Source: Escherichia coli (GTDB lineage: Bacteria; Pseudomonadota; Gammaproteobacteria; Enterobacterales; Enterobacteriaceae). Taken from it: a stretch of DNA of 64,000 nt. Position numbers and translations under genes: made by a program. The DNA lies in NCBI RefSeq assembly GCF_044324875.1, contig NZ_CP172185.1. The stretch is one strand, 5' to 3'. Below the pieces are notes generated by a model. The model was not told the DNA's origin. It worked only from the letters and a program-made list of their open reading frames with translations, and did no database searches. This document shows, one piece after another, positions 5,138 through 45,648 of this stretch; position 1 is the stretch's first letter, and each line of letters starts with the position of its first letter.

Positions 5138-5692
5138 CTATTTAATACTCAGCAACTGCTCGACGGTCATATTTTTAATTGCGCCCCGGTTTATGAGAGT
5201 CCATCCCTGCTTTTCCAGATAAAAACGGAAAGTATCCAGAGTACAGACCAGTGCGCCATCAGGAACTGTTTCGGTGAATTTGATGTAGCCGTGTTCGTCG
5301 AAGCGGATAACCAGGGTGCGGCCATCACCCGGGATTATTTTGTCAGCGGGTGTGGTGTTATTCCGGCGCAGTTCTTCCTCCATGCGGTCGAACTCGGCAA
5401 TGTAGGCTTCCTTGAATGCAGCGGCCTTTTTGCCCGTGAAGCCCATCACAAGGAAAACGAAGCCGTTTTTGGTGATTTGGTACATTGGGAGTTTGCGTCC
5501 TGTTGAGTCGGTGTATTCGCTCGCCTTAAAATTAAGGGCAGTGAACTCAGCGGAGCAGTCCAGTAATTTTATTTTTTGGATAACATTGTCGTGACGCTTG
5601 CCAAAGAATTCCGCGATCGCAACAGACGTAGTGACAGCGCGACCATTTTCAATGGTTACGTCAGGGTGAGAAAGGGTAAGGGTAGTAGCCAT
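5138..5692 (-). CDS. Phage regulatory protein, Rha-like (185 aa from internal start)
   Basis: Track ORF 5138..5989; the ATG at 5692 is preceded by GGAGG with 8 nt spacing. Sequence from MATTLTLSHPDV...AIAEFFGKRHDNVIQKIKLL resembles the Rha family. A terminator-like hairpin sits inside the upstream extension. Confidence 0.65.
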   Translation of the reverse strand: MATTLTLSHPDVTIENGRAVTTSVAIAEFFGKRHDNVIQKIKLLDCSAEFTALNFKASEYTDSTGRKLPMYQITKNGFVFLVMGFTGKKAAAFKEAYIAEFDRMEEELRRNNTTPADKIIPGDGRTLVIRFDEHGYIKFTETVPDGALVCTLDTFRFYLEKQGWTLINRGAIKNMTVEQLLSIK

Positions 5693-6837: not shown

Positions 6838-7065
6838 TGAGAAATCCTCTGTTTCCCCTTAACGCCGGGGTAGCGGAACAAAAACCTGCTGCATAGTTAA
6901 AGTTAAACCCTGCCGTCATGTTCATACGCCTCGGGCTGGCTACTTAACCCCTGACCACTGCCTGGTAACTCGAAGTATTGCCCTGCGTTCTGTGGGGCGG
7001 GGTGGGTTGGTGAAATTAGTTTATACAAAAATAAACTTAACAGTCAATCTGCAACTTAACTAAAC

Positions 7066-8823: not shown

Positions 8824-9245
8824 AAATCAAACATGAGCACATCCGCATGGCGATGAATGCCTGGGCGCATCCGGACGGCGAAAAAGTACCGGCTGCGAAA
8901 ATTACCAAAGCGTATTTCGAACTGGGTATGACGTTCCCGGAACTGTACGACGACAGCCACCCTGAAGCCCTGGCGCGTAATACCCAGAAAATTTTCCGCT
9001 GGGTAGAGAAAGACACCCCTGATGCAGTTGAAAAAATTCAGGCGTTGTTACCAGCGATCGAAAAGGCAATGCCACCTTTGCTGGTGGCCAGAATGCGCAG
9101 CCACAGTTCAGCTTATTTTCGGGAGCTGGTGGAGATGCGGGAACGACTGGTGAGAGACGCTGATGATTTTGTCGCGGTGGCAATAGCTGGCTTCAACCAG
9201 ATCAACCGTGGTGGCCCGGCCGGAAATGCTGTGGCTGTGCATTGA
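8820..9245 (+). CDS. YdaT-like protein (proposed CII-like regulator in Rac-type prophages)
   Basis: 141 aa starting MKIKHEHI, as recalled for Rac YdaT; overlaps the cro-like stop (translational coupling). Confidence 0.7.
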   Translation: MKIKHEHIRMAMNAWAHPDGEKVPAAKITKAYFELGMTFPELYDDSHPEALARNTQKIFRWVEKDTPDAVEKIQALLPAIEKAMPPLLVARMRSHSSAYFRELVEMRERLVRDADDFVAVAIAGFNQINRGGPAGNAVAVH

Positions 9246-9316
9246 TCGGCAATATTCATACCGGATCTCTTTCGGTAATACGTGATTAAAAAGATTCGGT
9301 ATCTGAAGAGGTTAGT

Positions 9317-10387
9317 ATGGCTAATGCCTGGCTCAGATTATGGCATGACATGCCAAATGACCCCAAGTGGCGAACCATTGCCCGGGTGTCAGGTCAGCCA
9401 ATTGCAACAGTGATGGCTGTGTATATCCACCTCCTGGTGAGCGCGTCACGAAATGTCACGCGAGGTCACATTGATGTCACGACCGAGGATTTGGCAAGTG
9501 CGCTCGATGTGACAGAAGAGATGATTGATTCAATTTTGCAGACGATGCAGGGGCGGGTACTTGATGGTGATTTAATCACTGGATGGGAAAAACGCCAGGT
9601 GCTGAAAGAGGACAACGGCAATATTTCGCAAACCGCAAAATCTCCTGCAGAGCGCAAGAGGGCGCAGCGAGAGAGGGAAAGAAAGCGGGAACAAAATGGC
9701 GATTGTCACGGCGCGTCACGAAATGTCACGCACATGTCACGACGAGTCACGACAGATAAAGATACAGATAAAGATACAGATCAAGAAGATCAAAACACTA
9801 TGGTCCATGGCGTGAAAAACGCCACGAACCAGGCTGGGGATGTTCAGACCGTCAATCCTGATCAGCCCGCAGGCACGACACCGGAAGCCGATTCAGCGTA
9901 TGCGCTGAAAGCCGATTCGGGCGCTGTGCAGCAGGCGATGACCGCAGGGTCGGAGCAATCACACCAACTGCAGCAGCCTGAAGCCGATTCCGCGATTCAG
10001 CGGGAAGCCGATCGGGTAGTCCCGGAAAACACCGGGCAGCCTGTGGGACGAGTGGATTATCCGGATGTGTTCGAACAGGTCTGGCGGGAATACCCGTTGC
10101 GTGCCGGGGCAAACCCGAAGAAATCCGCTTTCAGTGCCTGGAAGGCCAGATTACGCGAGGGGGTGCCACCGCAGGTCATGCTGGATGGTGTGAGGCGTTA
10201 CGCGAGGTACCTGGCGGCGACCGGGAAAGCGGGAACGGAATTTGTTCAGCGGGCGACAACGTTTTTTGGACCTGACCGGAATTTTGAAAACCCCTGGTTG
10301 CTCCCGACTGGCGGGACGAACAACCAGCGTTGTGTGAATCATATTTCCGAACCGGATACCGAAATTCCACCAGGTTTCAGGGGGTGA
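9317..10387 (+). CDS. Replication initiator / replisome organiser (O-like, with conserved phage C-terminal domain)
   Basis: 356 aa. N-terminal MANAWLRLWHDMPNDPKWRTIA and C-terminal FEQVWREYPLRAGANPKKSAFSAWKARL are typical of phage replication initiators. Iteron clusters lie inside the gene. Confidence 0.75.
   Translation: MANAWLRLWHDMPNDPKWRTIARVSGQPIATVMAVYIHLLVSASRNVTRGHIDVTTEDLASALDVTEEMIDSILQTMQGRVLDGDLITGWEKRQVLKEDNGNISQTAKSPAERKRAQRERERKREQNGDCHGASRNVTHMSRRVTTDKDTDKDTDQEDQNTMVHGVKNATNQAGDVQTVNPDQPAGTTPEADSAYALKADSGAVQQAMTAGSEQSHQLQQPEADSAIQREADRVVPENTGQPVGRVDYPDVFEQVWREYPLRAGANPKKSAFSAWKARLREGVPPQVMLDGVRRYARYLAATGKAGTEFVQRATTFFGPDRNFENPWLLPTGGTNNQRCVNHISEPDTEIPPGFRG
9440..9795. repeat. 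Putative replication origin: two iteron clusters plus an A/T-rich tandem repeat inside the O-like gene
   Basis: TCACGAAATGTCACGC-GAGGTCACATTGATGTCACGA at about 9444..9490 and GTCACGGCGCGTCACGAAATGTCACGCACATGTCACGACGAGTCACGA at about 9700..9750 (at least 8 GTCACG-type repeats); GATAAAGATACA x2 at about 9757..9790. Confidence 0.5.
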
Positions 10388-11934: not shown

Positions 11935-12344
11935 TTGCCGGAGGCGCTTATGGCAAAAGTATTTACACAAGAAGAGCGGGAAAAATTAAAGGGCAGGTTG
12001 TCGAACTCGTGCGACAGAGCGGGCGCGAGACGTTACGACAACTGGAAGCGAAAACAGGTGCGACAAGATATCTGCTGAGCGTTCTTGCCAGAGAGCTGGT
12101 TGCCAGTGGTGATGTATACAATTCAGGCTACGGATTATTCCCGTCTGAGCAGGCGCGTAAAGACTGGCAAAACGCCCGCAAAAAACTATCAAGGGAAAAG
12201 GTGAAAAAACCGGTTGTGGTTGATCCTGACCTTATCTGGTCATTACCAGACGGAGAAATACGCCGCTACGACAGGCGCCTGAATATAATCTGTCGCGAGT
12301 GCCGGAAGAGCGAAGCTATGCAGCGTGTACTGGCATTTTATTAA
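11931..12344 (+). CDS. Hypothetical phage protein (137 aa), wHTH-like
   Basis: GTG start overlapping the upstream stop (GTGA). ETLRQLEAKTGATRYLLSVLARELVASGDV resembles a winged helix. Confidence 0.5.
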   Translation: MIAGGAYGKSIYTRRAGKIKGQVVELVRQSGRETLRQLEAKTGATRYLLSVLARELVASGDVYNSGYGLFPSEQARKDWQNARKKLSREKVKKPVVVDPDLIWSLPDGEIRRYDRRLNIICRECRKSEAMQRVLAFY

Positions 12345-34031: not shown

Positions 34032-35474
34032 ATGGGTAAAGGCAGCAGTAAGGGGCATACCCCGCGCGAAGCGAAGGACAACCTGAAGTCCACGCAGTTG
34101 CTGAGTGTGATCGATGTCATCAGCGAAGGGCCGATACAAGGACCGGTGGATGGATTAAAAAGCGTGCTGCTGAACGGTACGCCGGTGCTGGACAGTGAGG
34201 GGAATACCAATATATCCGGCGTCACGGTGGTATTCCGGGCCGGTGAGCAGGAGCAGACGCCGCCGGAGGGATTTGAATCCTCCGGCTCCGAGACGGTGCT
34301 GGGTACGGAAGTGAAGTACGACACGCCGATTACCCGGACCATCACGTCGGCAAACATCGACCGTCTGCGCCTGACCTTCGGTGTGCAGGCACTGGTGGAA
34401 ACCACCTCAAAGGGGGACCGGAATCCGTCGGAAGTCCGCCTGCTGGTTCAGATACAGCGTAACGGTCGCTGGTTAACGGAAAAAGACATCACCATTAAGG
34501 GCAAAACCACCTCGCAGTATCTGGCCTCGGTGGTGGTGGGTAACCTGCCGCCGCGCCCGTTCAGTATCCGGATGCGCAGGATGACGCCGGACAGCACCAC
34601 AGACCAGCTGCAGAACAAAACGCTCTGGTCGTCATACACCGAAATCATCGATGTGAAACAGTGCTACCCGAACACGGCACTGGTCGGTGTGCAGGTGGAT
34701 TCGGAGCAGTTCGGCAGCCAGCAGGTGAGCCGTAATTATCATCTTCGCGGGCGCATTCTGCAGGTGCCGTCGAACTATAACCCGCAGACGCGGCAATACA
34801 GCGGTATCTGGGACGGAACGTTTAAACCGGCATACAGCAACAACCCGGCCTGGTGTCTGTGGGATATGCTGACCCATCCGCGCTACGGCATGGGGAAACG
34901 TGTTGGCGCAGCGGATGTGGATAAATGGGCGCTGTATGTCATCGGCCAGTACTGCGACCAGTCAGTGCCGGACGGCTCTGGTGGCACGGAGCCGCGCATC
35001 ACCTGTAATGCCTGGCTGACCACACAGCGTAAGGCGTGGGATGTGCTCAGTGATTTCTGCTCGGCGATGCGCTGTATGCCGGTATGGAACGGGCAGACGC
35101 TGACGTTCGTGCAGGACCGACCGTCGGATAAGGTGTGGACCTATAACCGCAGTAATGTGGTGATGCCGGATGATGGCGCGCCGTTCCGCTACAGCTTCAG
35201 CGCCCTGAAGGACCGCCATAATGCCGTTGAGGTGAACTGGAGTGACCCGGATAACGGCCAGGAGACGGCGACAGAGCTTGTGGAGGACACGCAGGCCATT
35301 GCCCGTTACGGTCGTAACGTCACGAAGATGGATGCCTTTGGCTGTACCAGCCGGGGGCAGGCACACCGCGCCGGGCTGTGGCTGATTAAAACAGAACTGC
35401 TGGAGACGCAGACCGTGGATTTCAGCGTGGGTGCTGAAGGGCTTCGCCATGTACCGGTGCAAAATGGCATCTGA
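34032..35474 (+). pseudogene. J: Host specificity protein J, N-terminal fragment (interrupted by IS21-family insertion at about 35458)
   Basis: MGKGSSKGHTPREAKDNLKSTQLLSVIDVISEGPIQGPVDGLKSVLLNGTPVLD matches lambda J. The reading frame runs into the IS and stops at 35474. Confidence 0.85.
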
Positions 35475-35659
35475 ATCGATCGCAGTTTGGCATTCGAATC
35501 GATCATGATTTGGCATCCATCTCCGATCACAGTTTGGCATCACAATCGATCACGATTTGGCATGCTTCCGATCATTGATTGGCATCCTGCCAGTCACTCC
35601 GGGAATTAACTCTTTTCACCACAGTCTCCATTGCCGTGTTTAAACCAGTGGAGACGTCA

Positions 35660-37225
35660 ATGTCCAGAAAGAGAAAATCCAGGAGCACTATGGAAACCTG
35701 TTTTAAGATCCTTCAGCTCAAGTTCGACAAGAAGCTGACTAACCGTTGTATCGGACTGACGTTACACATCAGCGCCTCAACCGTTTTTGAGGTTCTTGCC
35801 CGCTTCAAAGCCTCTTCTCTGTCATGGCCATTACCTGCTGATATATCCCATGACACGCTGGAGAAACTCATTTTTCCGCCCAAAGACACCTTTGCATCAG
35901 AGCTTGTAATGCCTGACATGTTGTACTTCGATACGGAAATGAGAAAACCAGGTGTGACGCGGCAACTGTTGTGGATGGAATACAAGGCACAGGCGGGTAA
36001 CAAAGCGATGGGATACTCGCACTTCTGCCGTTGCTACCGGGAGTGGAAAAAAACGCGACGTCTCTCCATGCGCCAGGAGCATCGTGCCGGCGAAAAGCTT
36101 TTTATCGACTTCTGTGGTCCTACGGTTCCTGTTATTAATCCGGACACCGGTGAGATACGCCGCGTGGCAATCTTCGTGGCCGTAATGGGGGCGTCCAACT
36201 ATACCTACGTTGAAGCGTGCGAAGGTCAGGACATGATGTCATGGTTAAATGCCCACAGCCGTTGCCTGACCTTCCTGGGCGGCGTACCGAAGCTGCTCAT
36301 CCCCGATAACCTCAGAAGCGCAGTGAAAAAGGCCGATCGATATGAGCCTGTCATCAACGACAGTTATCAGGCACTGGCTGAGCACTATGGCACGGTTATC
36401 ATCCCGGCCCGACCACGCAAACCTAAAGATAAACCAAAAGCAGAAAACGGCGTCCTCATCGTTGAACGATGGCTTCTTGCCCGCATCCGTAATGAAACCT
36501 TCCACACGCTCAGGGCGCTGAATGCGCGCCTTAGGGAGTTACTGACAGACATGAATAACCGGCCAATGAAGGGGTACGGCAATCAAACCCGTGCAGAACG
36601 CTTCCGCATACTGGATGCGCCAGCACTCTCTCCGCTGCCTCTGGCACCTTATGAATACACGGAATACAAAGCTGTGAAGGTTGGCCCTGACTACCACGTT
36701 GAATATGCCCGTCACTGGTACTCCGTTCCACACGAACTGGTCGGTCAGCGTCTGTCACTGAAGGCGGGGCAGTCGGTGGTACAGCTCTGGCACAAGGGGC
36801 AGTGTGTGGCGCAACATCCGCGCAGCACACATGAATATAAACACACAACCAATCCGCTTCACATGCCAGAGCGCCACCGGCAGCACGGGACATGGACACC
36901 GGAACGCCTGATCGAGCAGGGAAAACGTACGGGCCCGTCCACAGGCCGGGTGGTTGAATCCATGCTGAAGGCAAAACCCCATCCGGAACTGGCTTATCGT
37001 GCAGTTCTGGGGCTGCTGGCACTTCAGAAAAAATACGGCCCGGAACGGCTGGAAAAGGCCTGTTACGTTGCCCTGCACTATAACGCCCCTGACAGACGCT
37101 TTATCGACAATCTGCTGCGTCACCATCGGGAGAACCTGGAGCTTCCATTATCCCGCCAGGGCGAACAACATCCGGCATATGCTTCAGAGCATGAAAACCT
37201 GCGTGGTCCGGGCTACTACCACTGA
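35660..37225 (+). CDS. istA: IS21-family transposase IstA
   Basis: Internal ATG at 35660 with GGAG RBS; about 521 aa with N-terminal HTH and DDE-type core. Confidence 0.85.
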   Translation: MSRKRKSRSTMETCFKILQLKFDKKLTNRCIGLTLHISASTVFEVLARFKASSLSWPLPADISHDTLEKLIFPPKDTFASELVMPDMLYFDTEMRKPGVTRQLLWMEYKAQAGNKAMGYSHFCRCYREWKKTRRLSMRQEHRAGEKLFIDFCGPTVPVINPDTGEIRRVAIFVAVMGASNYTYVEACEGQDMMSWLNAHSRCLTFLGGVPKLLIPDNLRSAVKKADRYEPVINDSYQALAEHYGTVIIPARPRKPKDKPKAENGVLIVERWLLARIRNETFHTLRALNARLRELLTDMNNRPMKGYGNQTRAERFRILDAPALSPLPLAPYEYTEYKAVKVGPDYHVEYARHWYSVPHELVGQRLSLKAGQSVVQLWHKGQCVAQHPRSTHEYKHTTNPLHMPERHRQHGTWTPERLIEQGKRTGPSTGRVVESMLKAKPHPELAYRAVLGLLALQKKYGPERLEKACYVALHYNAPDRRFIDNLLRHHRENLELPLSRQGEQHPAYASEHENLRGPGYYH

Positions 37226-37241
37226 CAGAAGGAACAACAGT

Positions 37242-37997
37242 ATGAGTGATAACCTGTTAAACAAACTGACCCAACTGAAACTCCCGGCGATGGCCGGGAG
37301 CCTGATACGGCAGCGGGAAACGCCTCAGACCTACGACGAACTGTCGTTCGAGGAAAGGCTGACGCTGCTGGTTGATGACGAGCTTCTGAGCAGGGAAAAC
37401 AGCCGTGTGGCACGGTTGAGAAAAAATGCCGGCCTGAAATACCAGGCAACACCGGAAGGGCTGCGCTATCCGGCCTCAAGAGGTCTGCGGGCTGAACAGA
37501 TGAGAGAACTGCTGAACGGCCACTACATAACCCACAGGAAAAACCTGCTGATAACCGGTCCGACAGGATGTGGCAAGAGCTGGATAGCCAATGCGCTGGG
37601 CGAACAGGCATGTCGACAGAAACACAGCGTCCGGTACTGTAGAACCGGGCGATTACTGGAACAACTGGCTCAGGGACGTGTTGATGGCAGCTGGCTGAAA
37701 TATCTGAAACAGTTGCAAAAAATACAGGTTCTAATCCTGGACGATCTGGGGCTGGAACAGTTAAGTAACGCCCAGTGTAATGACCTTCTGGAGCTCATAG
37801 AGGATCGTTACGGACAAAGCAGCACGATAGTGGTAAGCCAGTTCCCGGTAGATAAATGGCATGGTCTGATGGAGAACCCAACAACAGCAGATGCCATCCT
37901 GGACAGACTGGTACATAACTCACACCGAGTGGTCCTTCAGGGAGAGTCACTGAGGAAAAATCCCCCGGTAGTGGAAAGCAGCGAAAAAACGCGTTAA
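37242..37997 (+). CDS. istB: IS21-family ATP-binding helper IstB
   Basis: MSDNLLNKLTQLKLPAMAGSL...LITGPTGCGKSWIANALG (Walker A)...LILDDLG (Walker B). Confidence 0.85.
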   Translation: MSDNLLNKLTQLKLPAMAGSLIRQRETPQTYDELSFEERLTLLVDDELLSRENSRVARLRKNAGLKYQATPEGLRYPASRGLRAEQMRELLNGHYITHRKNLLITGPTGCGKSWIANALGEQACRQKHSVRYCRTGRLLEQLAQGRVDGSWLKYLKQLQKIQVLILDDLGLEQLSNAQCNDLLELIEDRYGQSSTIVVSQFPVDKWHGLMENPTTADAILDRLVHNSHRVVLQGESLRKNPPVVESSEKTR

Positions 37998-38096
37998 AAA
38001 GCGGTAGAAAAAGTTAAGTTCCCGGTTGATCGAATGGATGCGAATCGCTGATCGGACTTCGATGCCAATCCGTGATCGAATAGAGCGGAATACGCA

Positions 38097-40219
38097 TACC
38101 GGGCGATGTCATTGAAATCTGTGATGATGACTATGCCGGTATCAGCACCGGTGGTCGTGTGCTGGCGGTGAACAGCCAGACCCGGACGCTGACGCTCGAC
38201 CGTGAAATCACGCTGCCATCCTCCGGTACCACGCTGATAAGCCTGGTTGACGGAAGTGGCAATCCGGTCAGCGTGGAGGTTCAGTCCGTCACCGACGGCG
38301 TGAAGGTAAAAGTGAGCCGGGTTCCTGACGGCGTTGCCGAGTACAGCGTGTGGGGGCTGAAGCTGCCGACGCTGCGCCAGCGCCTGTTCCGCTGCGTGAG
38401 TATCCGTGAGAACGACGACGGCACGTATGCCATCACTGCCGTGCAGCATGTACCGGAAAAAGAGGGCATCGTGGATAACGGGGCACACTTTGACGGTGAC
38501 CAGAGCGGCACGGTGAATGGTGTCACGCCGCCAGCAGTGCAGCACCTGACTGTCGAAGTCACCGCAGACAGCGGGGAGTATCAGGTACTGGCCCGCTGGG
38601 ACACGCCGAAGGTGGTGAAAGGCGTGAGTTTCATGCTTCGCCTGACCGTGGCAGCGGATGACGGCAGTGAGCGGCTGGTCAGCACGGCCCGGACGACGGA
38701 AACCACATACCGCTTCAGGCAGCTGGCGCCGGGGAACTACAGGCTGACAGTCCGGGCAGTAAATGCCCGGGGGCAGCAGGGAGACCCGGCGTCGGTATCG
38801 TTCCGGATTGCCGCACCGGCAGCGCCGTCGCGGATTGAGCTGACGCCGGGCTATTTTCAGATAACCGCCACGCCGCATCTTGCCGTTTATGATCCGACGG
38901 TGCAGTTTGAGTTCTGGTTCTCGGAAAAGCGGATTACCGATATCAGGCAGGTTGAAACCACAGCCCGTTATCTTGGTACCGGAAGTCAGTGGCTTGTCTC
39001 CGGCCAGAATATTAAACCTGGCCATGATTATTACTTTTATATCCGCAGTGTTAACACTGTCGGTAAATCGGCATTCGTGGAGGCAGTCGGTCGGGCGAGT
39101 AATGATCCTGCCGGTTACCTTAATTTTTTCAGGGGGGCGATAAATAAAACGCATCTGGGACGGGAGATCAATGAACGCATTGATGCCTCTGCACGGCGCA
39201 CTGAAGTTGAGCAACTGGAGAATGCGATTAACCGCGAAATGACGCAGCTGGAGAATGCGATTAACCGCGAAATGACGCAGCTGGAGAAAGATGTGAGGCA
39301 GCGTGCGGAGCGTGATATCGCAGAGGTGACGAAAAAAATCACGGCGTCTGAAAACAGCATAACGGAACTGGTGGCGAAAAAGAGCGGTGAACAGTCGCTG
39401 GCCATTGCGAAAGTCGACAGGAAAGTTGACAGCGTGAGCAGTGAAATCCGGCAGACAGTAAGCAGGAGCACGGAGGAGAACAGCCGACAGATAGCGCAGG
39501 TCAGGCAGTATGTTGATGATAAAAGTGCGCAAATAAGTACTGTTGTGGCGAAAAAGAGCGGTGAACAGTCAATGGCCATTGCGGAAGTTGACAGAAAAGT
39601 TGACAGGATGGGCAGCGAAATCCGGCAGACAGTAAGCAGGAGCACGGAGGAGAACAGCCGACAGATAGCGCAGATCAGACAGTATGTTGATGATAAGGGA
39701 AGTCAGATCAAACAGAGCACGGATAAAAAACTGGGATCCTGGAATGCCAGCATTGAGCAGATACAGAAAGTTCAGGAGGACACGCGCCGGAACCTGAACA
39801 GCATGTGGGCTGTGAAGCTGCAGCAGACACGGGATGGACGTCTCTATATTGCAGGTATTGGTGCCGGAATCGAAAATACGTCTGACGGAATTCAGAGTCA
39901 GATCCTGATGCAGGCAGATCGTATTGCGATGATTAACCCGGAAAATGGCAATACAACACCTTTGTTTGTGGCTCAGGGTGATCAGCTGTTCATGAATGAT
40001 GTTTTCATGAAAAAACTGACCGTGGATTTTGCCAGAGTGACGGGAGATATCCGGTCAGATAATTTTCATTCCGGTAGTCCGGGGTGGCGTTTATCAAGAA
40101 ACGGCAGCCTTGAAATTAACTCAGGAAGGCCCGGCGCAGGCCGCCTGTTTTTCAATGGCGAGCGAATCGACGTATATGACGATAACAATGTGTTAAGAGT
40201 ACGACTGGGGAGACTGTAA
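38097..40219 (+). pseudogene. J: Host specificity protein J, C-terminal fragment (distal tip diverges from lambda and carries tandem duplications)
   Basis: Continues the lambda-J-like sequence [43 protein letters not shown]. Track ORF 38159..40219. Confidence 0.85.
39214..39718 (+). repeat. Tandem duplications inside the J distal region: 2 x 33 bp and 2 x about 174 bp
   Basis: CTGGAGAATGCGATTAACCGCGAAATGACGCAG twice ([11 protein letters not shown] x2). A larger unit starting GTGGCGAAAAAGAGCGGTGAACAGTC repeats at about 39371 and 39545 with about 90 percent identity. Confidence 0.7.
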
Positions 40220-40479
40220 TGTTCGGAGTCCGGGTATGGCGCAAAGGGCGCCTTGTGACACATGAAATAAACCCAACAGGGGTGCTGGATGTGATCACTG
40301 AAGGGACGGGGCAGCGTTCTTATACTCCTTTGCAGGGCTGGCGTCTGGAAGTCTGTTCACCGGCCATTCTGATTAACGGTCAGGGAAGTCATACCAGTGC
40401 CAGTGTATCCGGCTGGACAGTGCACTATGCCAACACAAGCTGGCTAAGACCCGTGCTGGTCATGATAAGGGGGATCTGA
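40219..40479 (+). CDS. Hypothetical protein (86 aa), translationally coupled to J
   Basis: Start overlaps the J stop (TAATG); no known motif. Confidence 0.5.
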   Translation: MFGVRVWRKGRLVTHEINPTGVLDVITEGTGQRSYTPLQGWRLEVCSPAILINGQGSHTSASVSGWTVHYANTSWLRPVLVMIRGI

Positions 40480-41141
40480 TGTTTGCACTTAAATTAACTG
40501 ATGAGCGGGGGAGAGAATGGATATCACCTGTTGCGCCGCCACTGAACCTTGTGCGCCGTTTTCATTTCACACTGAGTGCGCGTGATGCGGTGATGCAGTT
40601 TATCGACACCGGGGTGCCGACGAATTATCGTTGCGTGATTTTTATTAAACAGATAAGCGGTAATCAGTCCTTCCATGGTGAAATGGTTCAGCTTAACGGT
40701 ACCTGGCAGTATGACATTTTCAGCGCTGGTACAGGGCAGGAGCCGGGCATGGAACAGGACAGCACATATGTTGTTTATGTTTTTGCCAACATGGTGAATG
40801 TATGGCCGCAATGGGGAATACAGTTGTGCGACAGTCATGGCAGGGTGGTCTGGAACACGGAAATGCTGCCACTGGAAGTAAAAATGACGCGAATATGGGA
40901 AAAGGATGTACCGATCAGTGTGGGACATGATGTGGCCGTAATGCCGGGGTGTACCCAGTGGACGACAGTTCAGGAAGGGGAGAGTTATTACTGGTATACC
41001 GCCAGTTTTAATGCCAGAAACTCACAGTTATGGCGTCAGTCAACTTTTGCTGAAGATAACGTAGCGGCGCCCAATGATAATTCAGGTGTTGTTAATAACC
41101 TCTGTTATTACATAAATGCAGAAATTTATGATGCGTACTGA
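40479..41141 (+). CDS. Hypothetical protein (220 aa) downstream of J
   Basis: Start overlaps the previous stop (TGATG); Trp/Tyr-rich; no family recognised. Confidence 0.5.
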   Translation: MFALKLTDERGREWISPVAPPLNLVRRFHFTLSARDAVMQFIDTGVPTNYRCVIFIKQISGNQSFHGEMVQLNGTWQYDIFSAGTGQEPGMEQDSTYVVYVFANMVNVWPQWGIQLCDSHGRVVWNTEMLPLEVKMTRIWEKDVPISVGHDVAVMPGCTQWTTVQEGESYYWYTASFNARNSQLWRQSTFAEDNVAAPNDNSGVVNNLCYYINAEIYDAY

Positions 41142-41162
41142 TAGTTATGTTGAGGGCATGTA

Positions 41163-41408
41163 ATGAAAATAATCGTCTGCACTTTTTTGCTGTTTCTTGT
41201 ATCAGGTTGCGCGGGGTACCGTTCCGTTACGGAGAGAGTCCGGTGCACCGGTGTGCTGAGTCCCGGGGTTTTACAGCGAGCTTATACGGTAGATCTTACA
41301 GGGAAAATAGAAACGAAAAGCGGCACTGTGTATAAAGTATCAGCTCCGAGATTTTATGGTCAGTGGGTGAGTGAAGATATGTTTACGAAAGTTTCGTGCG
41401 TGAAGTAA
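41163..41408 (+). CDS. Small predicted lipoprotein (81 aa); possible Cor-like superinfection-exclusion protein
   Basis: MKIIVCTFLLFLVSGC lipobox; located between J and the side tail fibre, where cor-type genes sit in some lambdoid phages. Function is inferred from position only. Confidence 0.5.
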   Translation: MKIIVCTFLLFLVSGCAGYRSVTERVRCTGVLSPGVLQRAYTVDLTGKIETKSGTVYKVSAPRFYGQWVSEDMFTKVSCVK

Positions 41409-41483
41409 TCATAAAAACACCCGATTGTAAATGAATGACGACGCCCGCAATTTTGCGGGATTATTTTTATTTGTGGAGCGAGT

Positions 41484-42812
41484 ATGGCGGCTGTAAAAAT
41501 TTCAGGCGTGCTCAGGGACGGAACCGGAAAACCGGTACCGGGATGCATTATTGAGCTGAAAGCGAAGAGAACCAGCGAGACAGTCATCGCCACGACAGTG
41601 GCTTATGGCATGCCGGAAGAGACGGGGAGTTACAGTATGGATGTGGAGCCAGGAATATACAGGGTGACACTCAATACAGAAGGTTACCGTCCTTCGTATG
41701 TGGGAGATATCGTGGTCAGGGAGGATTCTTCACCGGGAACACTGAATAAATTTCTGATGGAGATGGAAGATGCTCCTTATTATCCGAAGGCGTTGTCAGA
41801 GCTGGAGGCTGTGGTGCAGTCCATACTGCACAGAGCAGAGTCCGCGGCATCTGAGGCGGAGGAAGCCCGGAAGCGAGCAGCATCTGCCCGGGGACCACGA
41901 GGAGAGAAAGGGGATACCGGCGCTCGTGGTGAAAGAGGCATTACCGGGCCACAGGGGCCAAAAGGTGAAACAGGAGCACGTGGCCCGGCAGGACCACAGG
42001 GACCAAAAGGTGAAACAGGTGAACGCGGTCCGGCAGGTCCACAGGGACCAAAGGGCGATACAGGTGAACGCGGCCCGGCAGGTCCACAGGGACCAAAAGG
42101 TGAAACAGGTGCACGTGGTCCGGAAGGTCCACAGGGAGCAAAAGGTGAAACAGGTGAACGCGGCCCGGCAGGTCCACAGGGAGCAAAGGGCGAAACAGGT
42201 GCACGTGGTCCGGAAGGCCCTCAGGGTCTGAAGGGAGAAAAGGGTGAGCGAGGAGAAAAAGGCCCTAAGGGGGATAAAGGAGATCCGGGAGGTCCACAGG
42301 GACCAAAAGGTGAAACAGGTGAACGTGGCCCGGCAGGTCCACAGGGACCAAAAGGTGAAACAGGTGAACGTGGCCCGGCAGGTCCACAGGGACCAAAGGG
42401 CGATACAGGTGAACGCGGTCCGGCAGGTCCACAGGGGCCAAGAGGGTATACAGGTGAACGCGGGCCGACAGGTCTACAGGGGCCAAGAGGGTATACAGGT
42501 GAACGCGGGCCGGCAGGTCCACAGGGGCCAAGAGGAGAAGCGGGGCGGCCAGCGAGCGTCGGAAGTGTTTATTCCGTGGGGTCTTATGTTCTGGGGATCA
42601 TAGAACGAAATCATGAGATAACAAATACCCGTCAAATACCCGGGTATCGTATCAGACAGGCCGTTATTGTGTCGTCGTCATCGGATAAACTTACAGATAT
42701 CCGCTTTTTATTTGGCAATCCTATGCTTGGTACATGGATGTTATGCACAACTAACATGGCGGTGAATAATATCAGTGGGACGATTTGGGGCCTGTTTCAG
42801 AGAATACTGTGA
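41484..42812 (+). CDS. stf: Side tail fibre protein with collagen-like Gly-X-Y repeats
   Basis: N-terminal tail-fibre domain ([63 protein letters not shown]) followed by about 70 G-X-Y triplets. Confidence 0.85.
41884..42546 (+). repeat. Collagen-like triplet repeat array (tandem about 45 bp units) within the tail fibre gene
   Basis: Repeated GGTCCACAGGGACCAAAAGGTGAAACAGGTGAACGCGGCCCGGCA-type units encoding [15 protein letters not shown]; explains the many antisense ORFs in the track here. Confidence 0.8.
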
Positions 42813-42827
42813 CAGGGGGAGAAATGA

Positions 42828-42950
42828 ATGAAGGTCGATAAAATCACGTCACCAGTGTGGGCTGACAGGGGTCATACGACCATAAACTGTATAGTGAAGT
42901 TTTCAGACGCGGAAACAGAATGTGTATTTACAGCAAGTGCGGATGATCCG
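42828..42950 (+). pseudogene. tfa: Tail fibre assembly protein, N-terminal 41 codons (interrupted by IS66-family insertion)
   Basis: ATG at 42828 with GGGGGAG RBS; MKVDKITSPVWADRGHTTINCIVKFSDAETECVFTASADDP then a stop inside the IS end. Confidence 0.6.
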
Positions 42951-43032
42951 TAACCGGCTCATTTAAACCGTCTGGTCTGTTTCCTCCGGCTCTACAAAAA
43001 TAATGTCCATCATTTTTAATGGACACTATCGT

Positions 43033-43680
43033 ATGAAACACCGGACCTGGATCACTGAAGCTTTACGTCTTCACTTTGAAGAACATTTACCCCGGGTTGT
43101 GGCCGGGCGTCGCCTGGGTGTACCAAAATCAACAGTTTGTAGTATGTTCGTGCGCTTTCGGAGAGCTGGCCTTTCGTGGCCTTTGCCCGCAGGCATGTCG
43201 GAGCAGGAACTTGATGCCTGCCTTTACGGACAATTTTCCACGGTACCAGTCGTACGTCCTGAAAGCACCGTTATATCCGAAGCCCCCGTGGTAAAAAAAC
43301 GTCCCCGGCGGCCCAACTTCCCTTATGAGTTTAAAATCGCCTTAGTGGAGCAGTCACTGCAGCCCGGAGCCTGTGTGGCGCAGATCGCCCGGGAAAACGG
43401 AATCAACGATAACCTGCTCTTCAACTGGCGCCATCAATACCGGAAAGGTGGCCTGCTGCCTTCCGGAAAAAATATGCCGGCACTGCTTCCCGTGACGTTA
43501 ACGCCGGAGCCGGATAATAAAATCCCGGCCCCCGCACAGGAACCAGAGCAGATAAATACACCGTCCGACAGTCTGTGTTGTGAGCTGGTTCTGCCGGCCG
43601 GAACTCTCAGGCTTAAAGGTAAACTGACGCCGGCGTTATTACAGACACTTATCCGCGAAATAAAAGGGAGCAGCCACTGA
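43033..43680 (+). CDS. tnpA: IS66-family accessory protein TnpA (orf1)
   Basis: Internal Met of track ORF 43003..43680; HTH-like N-terminus. Confidence 0.7.
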   Translation: MKHRTWITEALRLHFEEHLPRVVAGRRLGVPKSTVCSMFVRFRRAGLSWPLPAGMSEQELDACLYGQFSTVPVVRPESTVISEAPVVKKRPRRPNFPYEFKIALVEQSLQPGACVAQIARENGINDNLLFNWRHQYRKGGLLPSGKNMPALLPVTLTPEPDNKIPAPAQEPEQINTPSDSLCCELVLPAGTLRLKGKLTPALLQTLIREIKGSSH

Positions 43681-44027
43681 TGATATCTCTCCCTGCAGGT
43701 TCGCGTATCTGGCTGGTTGCAGGTATCACCGATATGCGAAATGGCTTTAACGGCCTGGCATCAAAAGTTCAGAACGTCCTGAAGGATGACCCGTTCTCCG
43801 GACACCTGTTCATCTTCCGCGGACGCCGGGGTGACCAGATAAAAGTGTTGTGGGCTGACAGTGACGGACTGTGCCTCTTCACCAAACGCCTGGAGCGGGG
43901 CCGCTTCGTCTGGCCAGTCACCCGTGACGGCAAGGTGCACCTTACTCCGGCTCAGTTATCCATGCTTCTTGAAGGTATCAACTGGAAGCACCCGAAACGA
44001 ACGGAACGCGCTGGAATCCGCATATAA
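43680..44027 (+). CDS. tnpB: IS66-family TnpB (orf2)
   Basis: 115 aa; MISLPAGSRIWLVAGITDMRNGFNGLASKVQNVLKDDPFSGHLFIFRGRRGDQIKVLWAD is the typical IS66 Orf2. Confidence 0.85.
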   Translation: MISLPAGSRIWLVAGITDMRNGFNGLASKVQNVLKDDPFSGHLFIFRGRRGDQIKVLWADSDGLCLFTKRLERGRFVWPVTRDGKVHLTPAQLSMLLEGINWKHPKRTERAGIRI

Positions 44028-44046
44028 CCCGTTGTAAAGTGAGGAT

Positions 44047-45618
44047 ATGGACACCTCACTTGCTCATGAGAACGCCCGCCTGCGGGCACTGTTGCAGACG
44101 CAACAGGACACCATCCGCCAGATGGCTGAATACAACCGCCTGCTCTCACAGCGGGTGGCGGCTTATGCTTCCGAAATCAACCGGCTGAAGGCGCTGGTTG
44201 CGAAACTGCAACGTATGCAGTTCGGTAAAAGCTCAGAAAAACTTCGTGCAAAAACCGAACGGCAGATACAGGAAGCACAGGAGCGAATCAGCGCACTTCA
44301 GGAAGAAATGGCGGAAACGCTGGGTGAGCAATATGACCCGGTACTGCCATCCGCCCTGCGCCAGTCTTCAGCCCGTAAACCGTTACCGGCCTCACTTCCC
44401 CGTGAAACCCGGGTTATCCGGCCGGAAGAGGAATGCTGTCCTGCCTGTGGTGGTGAACTCAGTTCTCTGGGATGTGATGTGTCAGAGCAACTGGAGCTTA
44501 TCAGCAGCGCCTTTAAGGTTATCGAAACACAACGTCCGAAACAGGCCTGTTGCCGGTGCGACCATATCGTGCAGGCACCAGTACCTTCAAAACCCATTGC
44601 ACGCAGTTATGCCGGAGCGGGGCTTCTGGCCCATGTTGTCACCGGGAAATATGCAGACCATCTGCCGTTATACCGCCAGTCAGAAATATACCGTCGTCAG
44701 GGAGTGGAGCTGAGCCGTGCCACACTGGGGCGCTGGACAGGTGCTGTTGCTGAACTGCTGGAGCCGCTGTATGACGTCCTGCGCCAGTATGTGCTGATGC
44801 CCGGTAAAGTCCATGCTGATGATATCCCCGTCCCGGTCCAGGAGCCGGGCAGCGGTAAAACCCGGACAGCCCGGCTGTGGGTCTACGTCCGTGATGACCG
44901 TAACGCCGGTTCACAGATGCCCCCGGCGGTCTGGTTCGCGTACAGTCCGGACCGGAAAGGTATCCATCCACAAAATCACCTGGCCGGTTACAGCGGTGTG
45001 CTTCAGGCCGATGCTTACGGTGGTTACCGGGCGTTATACGAATCCGGCAGAATAACGGAAGCCGCGTGTATGGCTCATGCCCGGAGAAAAATCCACGATG
45101 TGCATGCAAGAGCGCCCACCTACATCACCACGGAAGCCCTGCAGCGTATCGGTGAACTGTATGCCATCGAGGCAGAGGTCCGGGGCTGTTCAGCAGAACA
45201 GCGTCTGGCGGCAAGAAAAGCCAGAGCCGCGCCACTGATGCAGTCACTGTATGACTGGATACAGCAACAGATGAAAACACTGTCGCGTCACTCAGATACG
45301 GCAAAAGCGTTCGCATACCTGCTGAAACAGTGGGATGCACTGAACGTGTACTGCAGTAATGGCTGGGTGGAAATCGACAACAACATCGCAGAGAACGCCT
45401 TACGGGGAGTGGCCGTAGGCCGGAAAAACTGGATGTTCGCGGGTTCCGACAGCGGTGGTGAACATGCGGCGGTGTTGTACTCGCTGATCGGCACATGCCG
45501 TCTGAACAATGTGGAGCCAGAAAAGTGGCTGCGTTACGTCATTGAACATATCCAGGACTGGCCGGCAAACCGGGTACGCGATCTGTTGCCCTGGAAAGTT
45601 GATCTGAGCTCTCAGTAA
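44047..45618 (+). CDS. tnpC: IS66-family transposase TnpC (orf3)
   Basis: 523 aa with N-terminal coiled coil, Cys cluster CPACGG...CCRCDH, and DDE-type core. Confidence 0.85.
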
Positions 45619-45648
45619 ATATCAATACGGTTCTGACGAGTCGCTTAC

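Follow-up and report, generated by a model that had tools for sequence, protein, structure and literature searches.

A divergent phi80/N15/T1-type cassette downstream of gene J in an Escherichia coli prophage: a candidate receptor-binding pair with a Cor-like lipoprotein

We analysed a 64,000-nucleotide stretch of Escherichia coli DNA (contig NZ_CP172185.1 of assembly GCF_044324875.1), hereafter called the window, in which three small open reading frames (ORF1, ORF2 and ORF3) follow gene J of a lambda-like prophage. With a probability of roughly three in four, the trio is a divergent cassette of the phi80/N15/T1 type, which would determine the terminal receptor that a lambda-like tail recognises and would also protect the lysogen. 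The homology and synteny of the genes, the translational coupling, the lipoprotein signal, the terminator and the exchange of the cassette as a block were established directly. The initial annotation had stated that none of the three ORFs matches a family that can be named. This turned out to be wrong, since they match PHROG families 557, 425 and 1119, as do gp22, gp23 and Cor of phi80. The kind of locus, a gp22/gp23-type tail-tip module, is already known, and the new part is the divergent allele. Read as a receptor-binding cassette with its exclusion partner, the trio would offer a direct route to receptor prediction for lambda-like and Stx-like prophages.

The cassette lies at the end of a lambda-type tail operon (G, T, tape measure, M, L, K, I, J) and is made up as follows.

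38097-40219, plus strand: C-terminal part of J, with a pair of Ig_J domains, a coiled stretch rich in repeats, a Phage_Tail_Tip domain and a hairpin at its end; putative docking site of ORF1 and ORF2.
40219-40479, plus strand: ORF1, 86 amino acids, intact; predicted small beta-sandwich, probable homologue of phi80 gp22; putative adaptor between the J tip and ORF2.
40479-41141, plus strand: ORF2, 220 amino acids, intact; all-beta, homologue of phi80 gp23 and of Bas06 bas06_0024; putative receptor-binding protein capping the J trimer.
41163-41408, plus strand: ORF3, 81 amino acids, intact; predicted outer-membrane lipoprotein of the Cor family; putative superinfection-exclusion factor for the receptor of ORF2.
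41444-41469, plus strand: intrinsic terminator, CCCGCAATTTTGCGGG followed by a T-run, which closes the J-ORF1-ORF2-ORF3 transcription unit.

The stop codon of J (TAA, 40217-40219) overlaps the ATG of ORF1 (40219-40221) in the sequence TAATG, and the stop codon of ORF1 (TGA, 40477-40479) overlaps the ATG of ORF2 (40479-40481) in the sequence TGATG. Shine-Dalgarno-like sequences precede all three starts: GGGGAG at 40207-40212 for ORF1, AAGGGGGA at 40467-40474 for ORF2 and GAGGG at 41152-41156 for ORF3. A lipoprotein signal, MKIIVCTFLLFLVSG/C, stands at the start of ORF3, with the lipobox LVSG/C16 and an alanine at position +2. The ORF list and the check on the sequence bear out the initial annotation as to the ORF positions, both overlaps and the lipobox. 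In the RefSeq record NZ_CP100500 (locus L001, positions 9156-9380), the start of ORF1 is called late, giving 74 instead of 86 residues; the longer form is favoured because its N-terminus is conserved and its start overlaps the stop of J. In the same record, the intact gene of the 81-residue lipoprotein (L001, 10064-10309) carries no annotation.

Comparison with other E. coli prophages (loci L008 to L011) indicates that ORF1 to ORF3 are real genes and not chance ORFs. A diverged copy of the trio is found there with all three frames open, and the copy in L009 has the same TAATG and TGATG junctions. The amino acid identities between the window and L009 are 63% for ORF1, 53% for ORF2 and 48% for ORF3; the proportion of synonymous differences (pS) is 0.61-0.76, close to saturation, as compared to 0.29-0.37 for nonsynonymous differences (pN). 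Moreover, other gene callers predict ORF1 homologues of 86-87 residues with 62-65% identity, one of them from Citrobacter. The initial annotation had allowed that the coupled ORFs might prove not to be conserved; homologues of ORF1 and ORF2 are in fact kept in L008 to L011 and in other relatives, the Citrobacter ORF1 among them.

The family assignment is clearest for ORF2, which matches PHROG 425 over its full length (E 3.3e-27; residues 1-218 on profile positions 3-224); phi80 gp23 matches the same family at 1.6e-80. Both an N-terminal motif and a C-terminal motif (...YIN..IYD) are kept in the alignment of the ORF2 family. The position of the gene is also that of gp23, after the gene of a small protein which itself follows a J-like gene with a terminal Phage_Tail_Tip domain. 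All the ORF2 relatives that we examined directly follow a gene of 82-86 codons, which comes in turn after a protein bearing Phage_Tail_Tip wherever one was called. The AlphaFold2 (AF2) model of ORF2 is a confident, soluble all-beta structure (pLDDT, short for predicted local distance difference test, 89.9; predicted template modelling score, pTM, 0.88), which has many uncharacterised phage look-alikes in BFVD, including a protein of Pseudomonas phage vB_Pae_AM.P2. When the profile of the ORF2 family was aligned by hhalign with LIT1 gp54, the N-terminal 125 residues matched with a probability of 89.6% (E 1.9e-6).

ORF1 matches PHROG 557 at E 2.8e-4, as compared to 2.4e-36 for phi80 gp22. In hhalign, it was aligned with the small proteins of Stx phages, JenP1 and haarsle with a probability of 78.8% (E 1.7e-5), as compared to 15.9% for the phi80 set, and shared motifs are visible in its alignment with the small proteins. 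Its family link, which is drawn from the PHROG match, hhalign, these motifs and synteny, is the weakest of the three. The AF2 model of ORF1 has six strands (pLDDT 84.7).

A short motif, approximately [YF]G-h-x-h-x-D/N-x-x-G, is common to the N-termini of ORF1 and ORF2 in the window, that is, to the small and the large protein. It occurs also in the loci of the FhuA, BtuB, YncD and LptD types and in LIT1 gp54 and gp55 (L002, L006, L014 to L018), and it resembles the last hairpin of J (I-x-V-x-D-x-x-G-x-L-R-V, at about 40160-40216). The pattern suggests a common docking strand, even across receptor-binding families that have been described as unrelated.

The gene arrangement is that of phi80 and N15, in which J, a gene of about 90 codons, a gene of about 220 codons, cor, a terminator and a side fibre gene follow each other on the same strand. 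In phi80, gp22, gp23 and Cor have 100, 224 and 77 residues, as compared to 86, 220 and 81 in the window, and a terminator is annotated after cor at the same place as the one found here. The two loci share the same three PHROG families and the same C-terminal domain of J, whereas their proteins have diverged widely: identity is about 21% for ORF2 and about 32% for ORF3, and the likeness of ORF1 is barely detectable. Because these identities are so low, FhuA cannot be assumed as the target from the comparison with phi80. The same gene order is also found in Erwinia phage Midgardsormr38 and in Bas03.

The small E. coli siphoviruses of the BASEL collection share the concept, with the genes in the same position beside a J-like gene, and ORF2 is related to their Bas06 (BtuB) and Bas03 (FhuA) alleles. 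Unlike these phages, the host phage of the window is a temperate lambda-like prophage; furthermore, in Bas06, Bas10 and Bas18 (the BtuB, YncD and LptD alleles) the genes converge on J, whereas in the window they are co-directional with J and coupled to it. Among the small siphoviruses tested by Maffei et al., which use FhuA, BtuB, YncD and LptD among other receptors, the allele found beside the J-like gene agreed with the terminal receptor in every case, and the matching exclusion proteins are probably encoded next to it (PMC8594841). Bas06, which bears an ORF2 relative, uses BtuB. According to a 2026 preprint, genome-wide screens confirm the match between allele and receptor, and the extreme end of GpJ changes along with the allele (10.64898/2026.04.02.716166).

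Two further groups of phages carry comparable sets. In the short-tailed Stx phages (933W, Stx2-86 and phi24B), the same pair of a small and a large protein, gp27 and gp28, comes after the same C-terminal domain of the tail tip protein, and ORF2 is about 27% identical to gp28 of Stx2-86. These phages carry Lom where the window has the Cor-like lipoprotein, although one variant of such prophages has a cassette of the window type. Their receptor is given as BamA by Smith et al. (2007), as cited in PMC12309495. The Pseudomonas N4-like phages DEV and LIT1, whose receptor is LptD, have, like the window, an operon (gp56-gp55-gp54, with 429, 99 and 223 residues in LIT1) whose stop and start codons overlap and which encodes a J-like C-terminal domain. 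The likeness to this system is remote: the small proteins share only the N-terminal motif, and no exclusion lipoprotein is annotated next to the operon. In DEV, the three products are a J-like fibre, a small protein and a larger protein; gp54 has been assigned as the receptor binder by suppressor genetics and gp55 as an essential adaptor (PMC12892993). In the models of Matusiak et al., one member of a pair of the PHROG 557/425 type is a small Ig-like protein, and the other forms a "hand-like" cap over the "knife-like" end of J (PMC12309495). Thus, proteins of the gp22/gp23 type are treated as an adaptor and a receptor-binding protein on the J tip in several studies (PMC8594841; PMC12892993; PMC12309495; 10.64898/2026.04.02.716166).

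The end of J fits this arrangement. The C-terminal part of J matches the Pfam domains Ig_J (3.5e-43), Ig_J_second (5.3e-40) and Phage_Tail_Tip (2.1e-34), and its last 150 residues are 26-37% identical to the J-like C-termini of JenP1, phi80, haarsle and Midgardsormr38 and to the Stx2-86 tail tip. The end also resembles those of Bas10 J and LIT1 gp56. Sequence matches of J in the PDB include lambda J, DEV gp56 (9ze4) and gp24, a J-like tail tip protein of 1148 residues (23gd). The match to lambda J ends at residue 941, so the LamB-binding end of the lambda type is absent; over its last 60 or so residues, J has matches in DEV gp56 and further tail tip proteins. The coiled region of J contains two segments of 152 bp that are about 92% identical and lie 174 bp apart (39371-39522 and 39545-39696), an internal tandem duplication of a 58-residue unit.

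These features of J bear on the possibility that ORF1 and ORF2 are assembly factors or chaperones of the J tip instead of virion proteins, with receptor binding residing in J itself. Coupling to J would also suit a chaperone, the presence of the small DEV protein gp55 in the virion is reported as uncertain (PMC12892993), and a structural or chaperone-like role was raised by Matusiak et al. (PMC12309495). We consider this explanation unlikely: J has no receptor-binding end of the lambda type, DEV gp54 is a virion protein that carries host-range suppressor mutations (PMC12892993), and the alleles of the locus track receptor use (PMC8594841).

Database labels for these genes are "hypothetical", "outer membrane protein" and "membrane associated protein". 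The last two, which are PHROG and GenBank product names for genes of the ORF1/ORF2 type, might be taken to mean that ORF1 and ORF2 are morons encoding host-membrane proteins. Such a location is very improbable, since neither protein showed a signal peptide or a hydrophobic segment in a Kyte-Doolittle scan (maximum over a 15-residue window 0.91 for ORF1 and 1.07 for ORF2, as compared to 2.62 for ORF3), the model of ORF2 is a soluble beta structure, both genes are translationally coupled inside a late tail operon, and published estimates of membrane affinity for the homologues are low (PMC12309495).

As regards ORF3, several lines of evidence support its identification as a Cor-like lipoprotein at the level of sequence. 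It matches PHROG 1119 (Cor) at E 8.2e-7, as compared to 7.1e-37 for phi80 Cor, and is 32-36% identical to Cor of phi80 and Midgardsormr38 over 91-96% of its length. Cys16, Cys28, Tyr57, Trp68, Phe74 and Cys79 are invariant among ORF3, its copy in L009, Cor of phi80, Midgardsormr38 and Stx2-86, and haarsle gp39. Members of the Cor family are expected to have a signal peptide with a lipobox cysteine and a mature size of about 55-70 residues, and an 81-residue precursor with C16 fits this expectation. Finally, ORF3 sits where cor does in phi80, Midgardsormr38 and Bas03, beside a pair of the gp22/gp23 type that neighbours J. The initial annotation had proposed a cor- or lom-type gene for this position. 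The first half of this proposal is upheld by the PHROG 1119 match, the conserved residues and the position, whereas Lom, an Ail/Lom beta-barrel of about 200 residues, is ruled out: ORF3 is an 81-residue lipoprotein with no Pfam match, and ORF1 and ORF2 gave neither a signal peptide nor a significant Pfam match. PADLOC returned no match.

Other small outer-membrane lipoproteins with an internal disulphide are encoded beside a receptor-binding gene and act on the receptor from the periplasm, namely Llp of T5 and Rtp45 of Rtp. Their sequence families are distinct from that of ORF3, to which the mechanism may be transferred by analogy only. In T5, Llp reaches its target FhuA from the periplasmic side, and the same way of working has been proposed for Cor (PMC9586334); for the LptD type, cryo-electron microscopy (cryo-EM) located the receptor-binding protein at LptD's outer face and the Rtp45 lipoprotein on the periplasmic side (10.1101/2025.07.07.663478). 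By the same analogy, ORF3 probably blocks the receptor that ORF2 binds.

The homologues suggest how the cassette would work. ORF2 would cap the trimeric tip of J and bind an outer-membrane protein, ORF1 would bridge or stabilise the attachment of ORF2 to J, and receptor binding would trigger DNA ejection. In the lysogen, ORF3 would be exported, lipidated and kept at the periplasmic face of the outer membrane, where it may bind the same receptor and distort its outer loops, holding it in a state closed to phage binding. Adsorption would then fail for phages dependent on this receptor, the phage's own progeny among them.

A number of points weigh against this interpretation. All function is assigned by homology at low identity, and the published support for this type of protein as a receptor binder, the LptD type apart, is mostly correlative or in silico. 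ORF1 is assigned to its family only weakly (PHROG E 2.8e-4; hhalign probability 79%). Foldseek searches of the PDB gave no significant fold match for ORF2 and none for ORF1, whose best hit (E 0.33) was the C-terminal sandwich of the Sf6 tailspike; searches of PDB sequences with single sequences and with profiles likewise returned nothing real for the cassette proteins, so no solved structure matches ORF1 or ORF2. A sequence scan found no promoter above chance upstream of ORF3, which leaves independent expression of this gene unsupported, and activity of the cassette in this particular strain, where J is interrupted, is doubtful. In addition, ORF3 scored 28.4 bits (E 1.2e-6) on the NCBIfam model NF047972 (lamb_exclu_cor), below its cut-off of 31 bits, and its best PHROG match is the unannotated family 27799 (E 1.2e-8). 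The failure to reach the curated Cor cut-off and a best match without an assigned function would be in line with ORF3 being a moron lipoprotein that does not block a receptor but serves some other function, for instance as a trait of virulence or of the cell surface. This too seems improbable, given that ORF3 has the signature residues and the position of Cor and travels with its ORF1 and ORF2 partners between unrelated phage types, as a cognate pair would. The last point against the interpretation concerns ORF2, which by the criterion of a receptor-prediction study (identity above 30% and coverage above 99% to binders of FhuA, BtuB, YncD or LptD; 10.64898/2026.04.02.716166) falls outside all four receptor-defined families.

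Within the receptor-binding interpretation, we compared the cassette with reference loci for the four receptor types (FhuA, Bas03; BtuB, Bas06; YncD, Bas10; LptD, Bas18). In phmmer searches, ORF2 matched the proteins of JenP1, Stx2-86 (gp28) and haarsle at 1e-13 to 1e-15, that of Bas06 (BtuB type) at E 8.4e-9, that of Bas03 (FhuA type) at 5.1e-8 and that of phi80 (FhuA type) at 1.1e-7, and neither phmmer nor blastp gave a match to the YncD (Bas10) or LptD (Bas18) types. Its identity is 21-28% to the proteins of the FhuA, BtuB and Stx-phage types and about 21-25%, over partial length, to those of phi80 (FhuA type) and haarsle (BtuB type), values lower than those at which the published studies find receptor use to be conserved. 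ORF3 is closer to the Cor of the FhuA type than to the lipoprotein of the BtuB type, and ORF2 leans the opposite way. The two proteins together thus point to no single receptor. FhuA, which the Cor link would point to, was rejected as a target because the FhuA alleles are too distant from both ORF2 and ORF3 and an identity of 21-28% is too low to carry specificity. The latter holds also for BtuB, which the similarity to haarsle and Bas06 would indicate, and LptD and YncD were dismissed on the grounds that ORF2 matches neither type of protein. An allele lying outside the four receptor-linked groups tested is a candidate for a receptor not yet assigned. It is therefore possible, though we would put it somewhat short of even odds, that the cassette represents a fifth receptor class of the J-tip module, in which ORF2 would bind an outer-membrane protein of E. 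coli that has so far not been linked to this family of binders, and ORF3 would be the dedicated blocker.

The comparison of L009 with Stx2-converting phage 86 provides evidence that the trio moves as a cassette, since a copy of it replaces gp27-gp28-lom in the short-tailed Stx-like prophages. On either flank, the L009 prophage and Stx2-86 run collinear (81% and 89% DNA identity), and the only difference is a block of 1.35 kb that begins about 30 nucleotides ahead of the tip gene's stop codon and closes with the lipoprotein gene. In this block, a trio of the window type (about 50-63% identity) stands in place of gp27-gp28-lom. DNA similarity between the window and L009 begins 12 nucleotides before the J stop, and the C-terminal residues of J or of the tip protein vary with the type of cassette, being ...VLRVRLGRL in the window, ...VVRVRIGRL in L009 and ...RLAVRIGRLS in Stx2-86. 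This co-variation fits a docking contact between the end of J and the cassette proteins. On these alignments, the trio and the last few codons of J are exchanged as a block between a prophage of the long-tailed kind and short-tailed Stx-like ones, and such a clean swap shows how Stx-like prophages can change host range in one recombination step.

The window allele is, in the collections searched, known only from prophages. The exact locus (more than 99% identity) is present in 9 of 5426 complete E. coli genomes. In 50,697 records of isolated phages, searched at the DNA level and by tblastn, the allele was not found: the DNA search of the trio gave no match, tblastn of ORF1 gave none, and the best tblastn identity was about 28%. 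An exhaustive search of 1.84 billion representative proteins returned only 41 relatives at E <= 0.001, a single one of them at E <= 1e-30. A single-protein scan of viral contigs found two identical copies only, and a word-indexed protein search retrieved only near-identical clusters, plus one cluster 52% identical to ORF2.

The prophage in the window is interrupted by two insertion sequence (IS) elements, which are listed here together with the remaining features of the region.

34032-35457, plus strand: N-terminal part of J, collinear with the intact gpJ of E. coli LH50-c (L001; 1169 residues) up to 35457 and truncated there by the insertion element.
35458-38096, plus strand (approximate to a few bases): IS21-family element in J, with istA- and istB-like ORFs at 35579-37225 and 36999-37997.
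41484-42812, plus strand: side tail fibre gene with collagen-like repeats, outside the cassette; PHROG 366 tail fibre, E 2.6e-103.
42950-45648, plus strand: IS66-family element, with three ORFs within 43003-45618, inserted in a DUF4376 gene after the side fibre gene.

The flanks of the IS21-family element map to positions 7036 and 7031 of L001, an overlap of 6 bp of J sequence, and those of the IS66-family element to positions 12333 and 12326, an 8-bp target duplication inside the DUF4376 coding sequence. The junction of J with the IS21-family element was found in no complete E. coli genome of the collection. With J split by the former element and the DUF4376 gene by the latter, the prophage is defective, and because J is broken no virion could make use of ORF1 and ORF2 in this window. 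Any remaining action of ORF3 would depend on its transcription. The practical meaning of the cassette for this window is small on account of the defective prophage.

Some further observations were made on neighbouring and related genes. In L019 (CP084225.1), the position of Cor beside an ORF2 relative of 31% identity is taken by a convergent ORF of 85 codons (5196-5453, minus strand) with a signal-like N-terminus and a TonB_C domain (PF03544), and J there looks degraded; the product may be a secreted TonB-domain decoy that acts as an exclusion factor. The T5-like Providencia phage PSTCR5 (L023, 3489-3758) encodes an 89-residue lipoprotein of about 34% identity to ORF3, with the same C-terminal pattern GWV.ED.F..V.C. 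A 328-residue protein encoded near it was compared with ORF2 and is not ORF2-like. A hok/gef toxin gene lies about 250 bp after the lipoprotein gene in L008 to L011 (for example at 7217-7357 in L009). The side tail fibre, annotated in L001 as "prophage tail fiber N-terminal domain protein", has 442 residues in the window (41484-42812) as compared to about 604 in LH50-c (L001, 10382-12196), and the number of Gly-X-Y repeats differs between the two.

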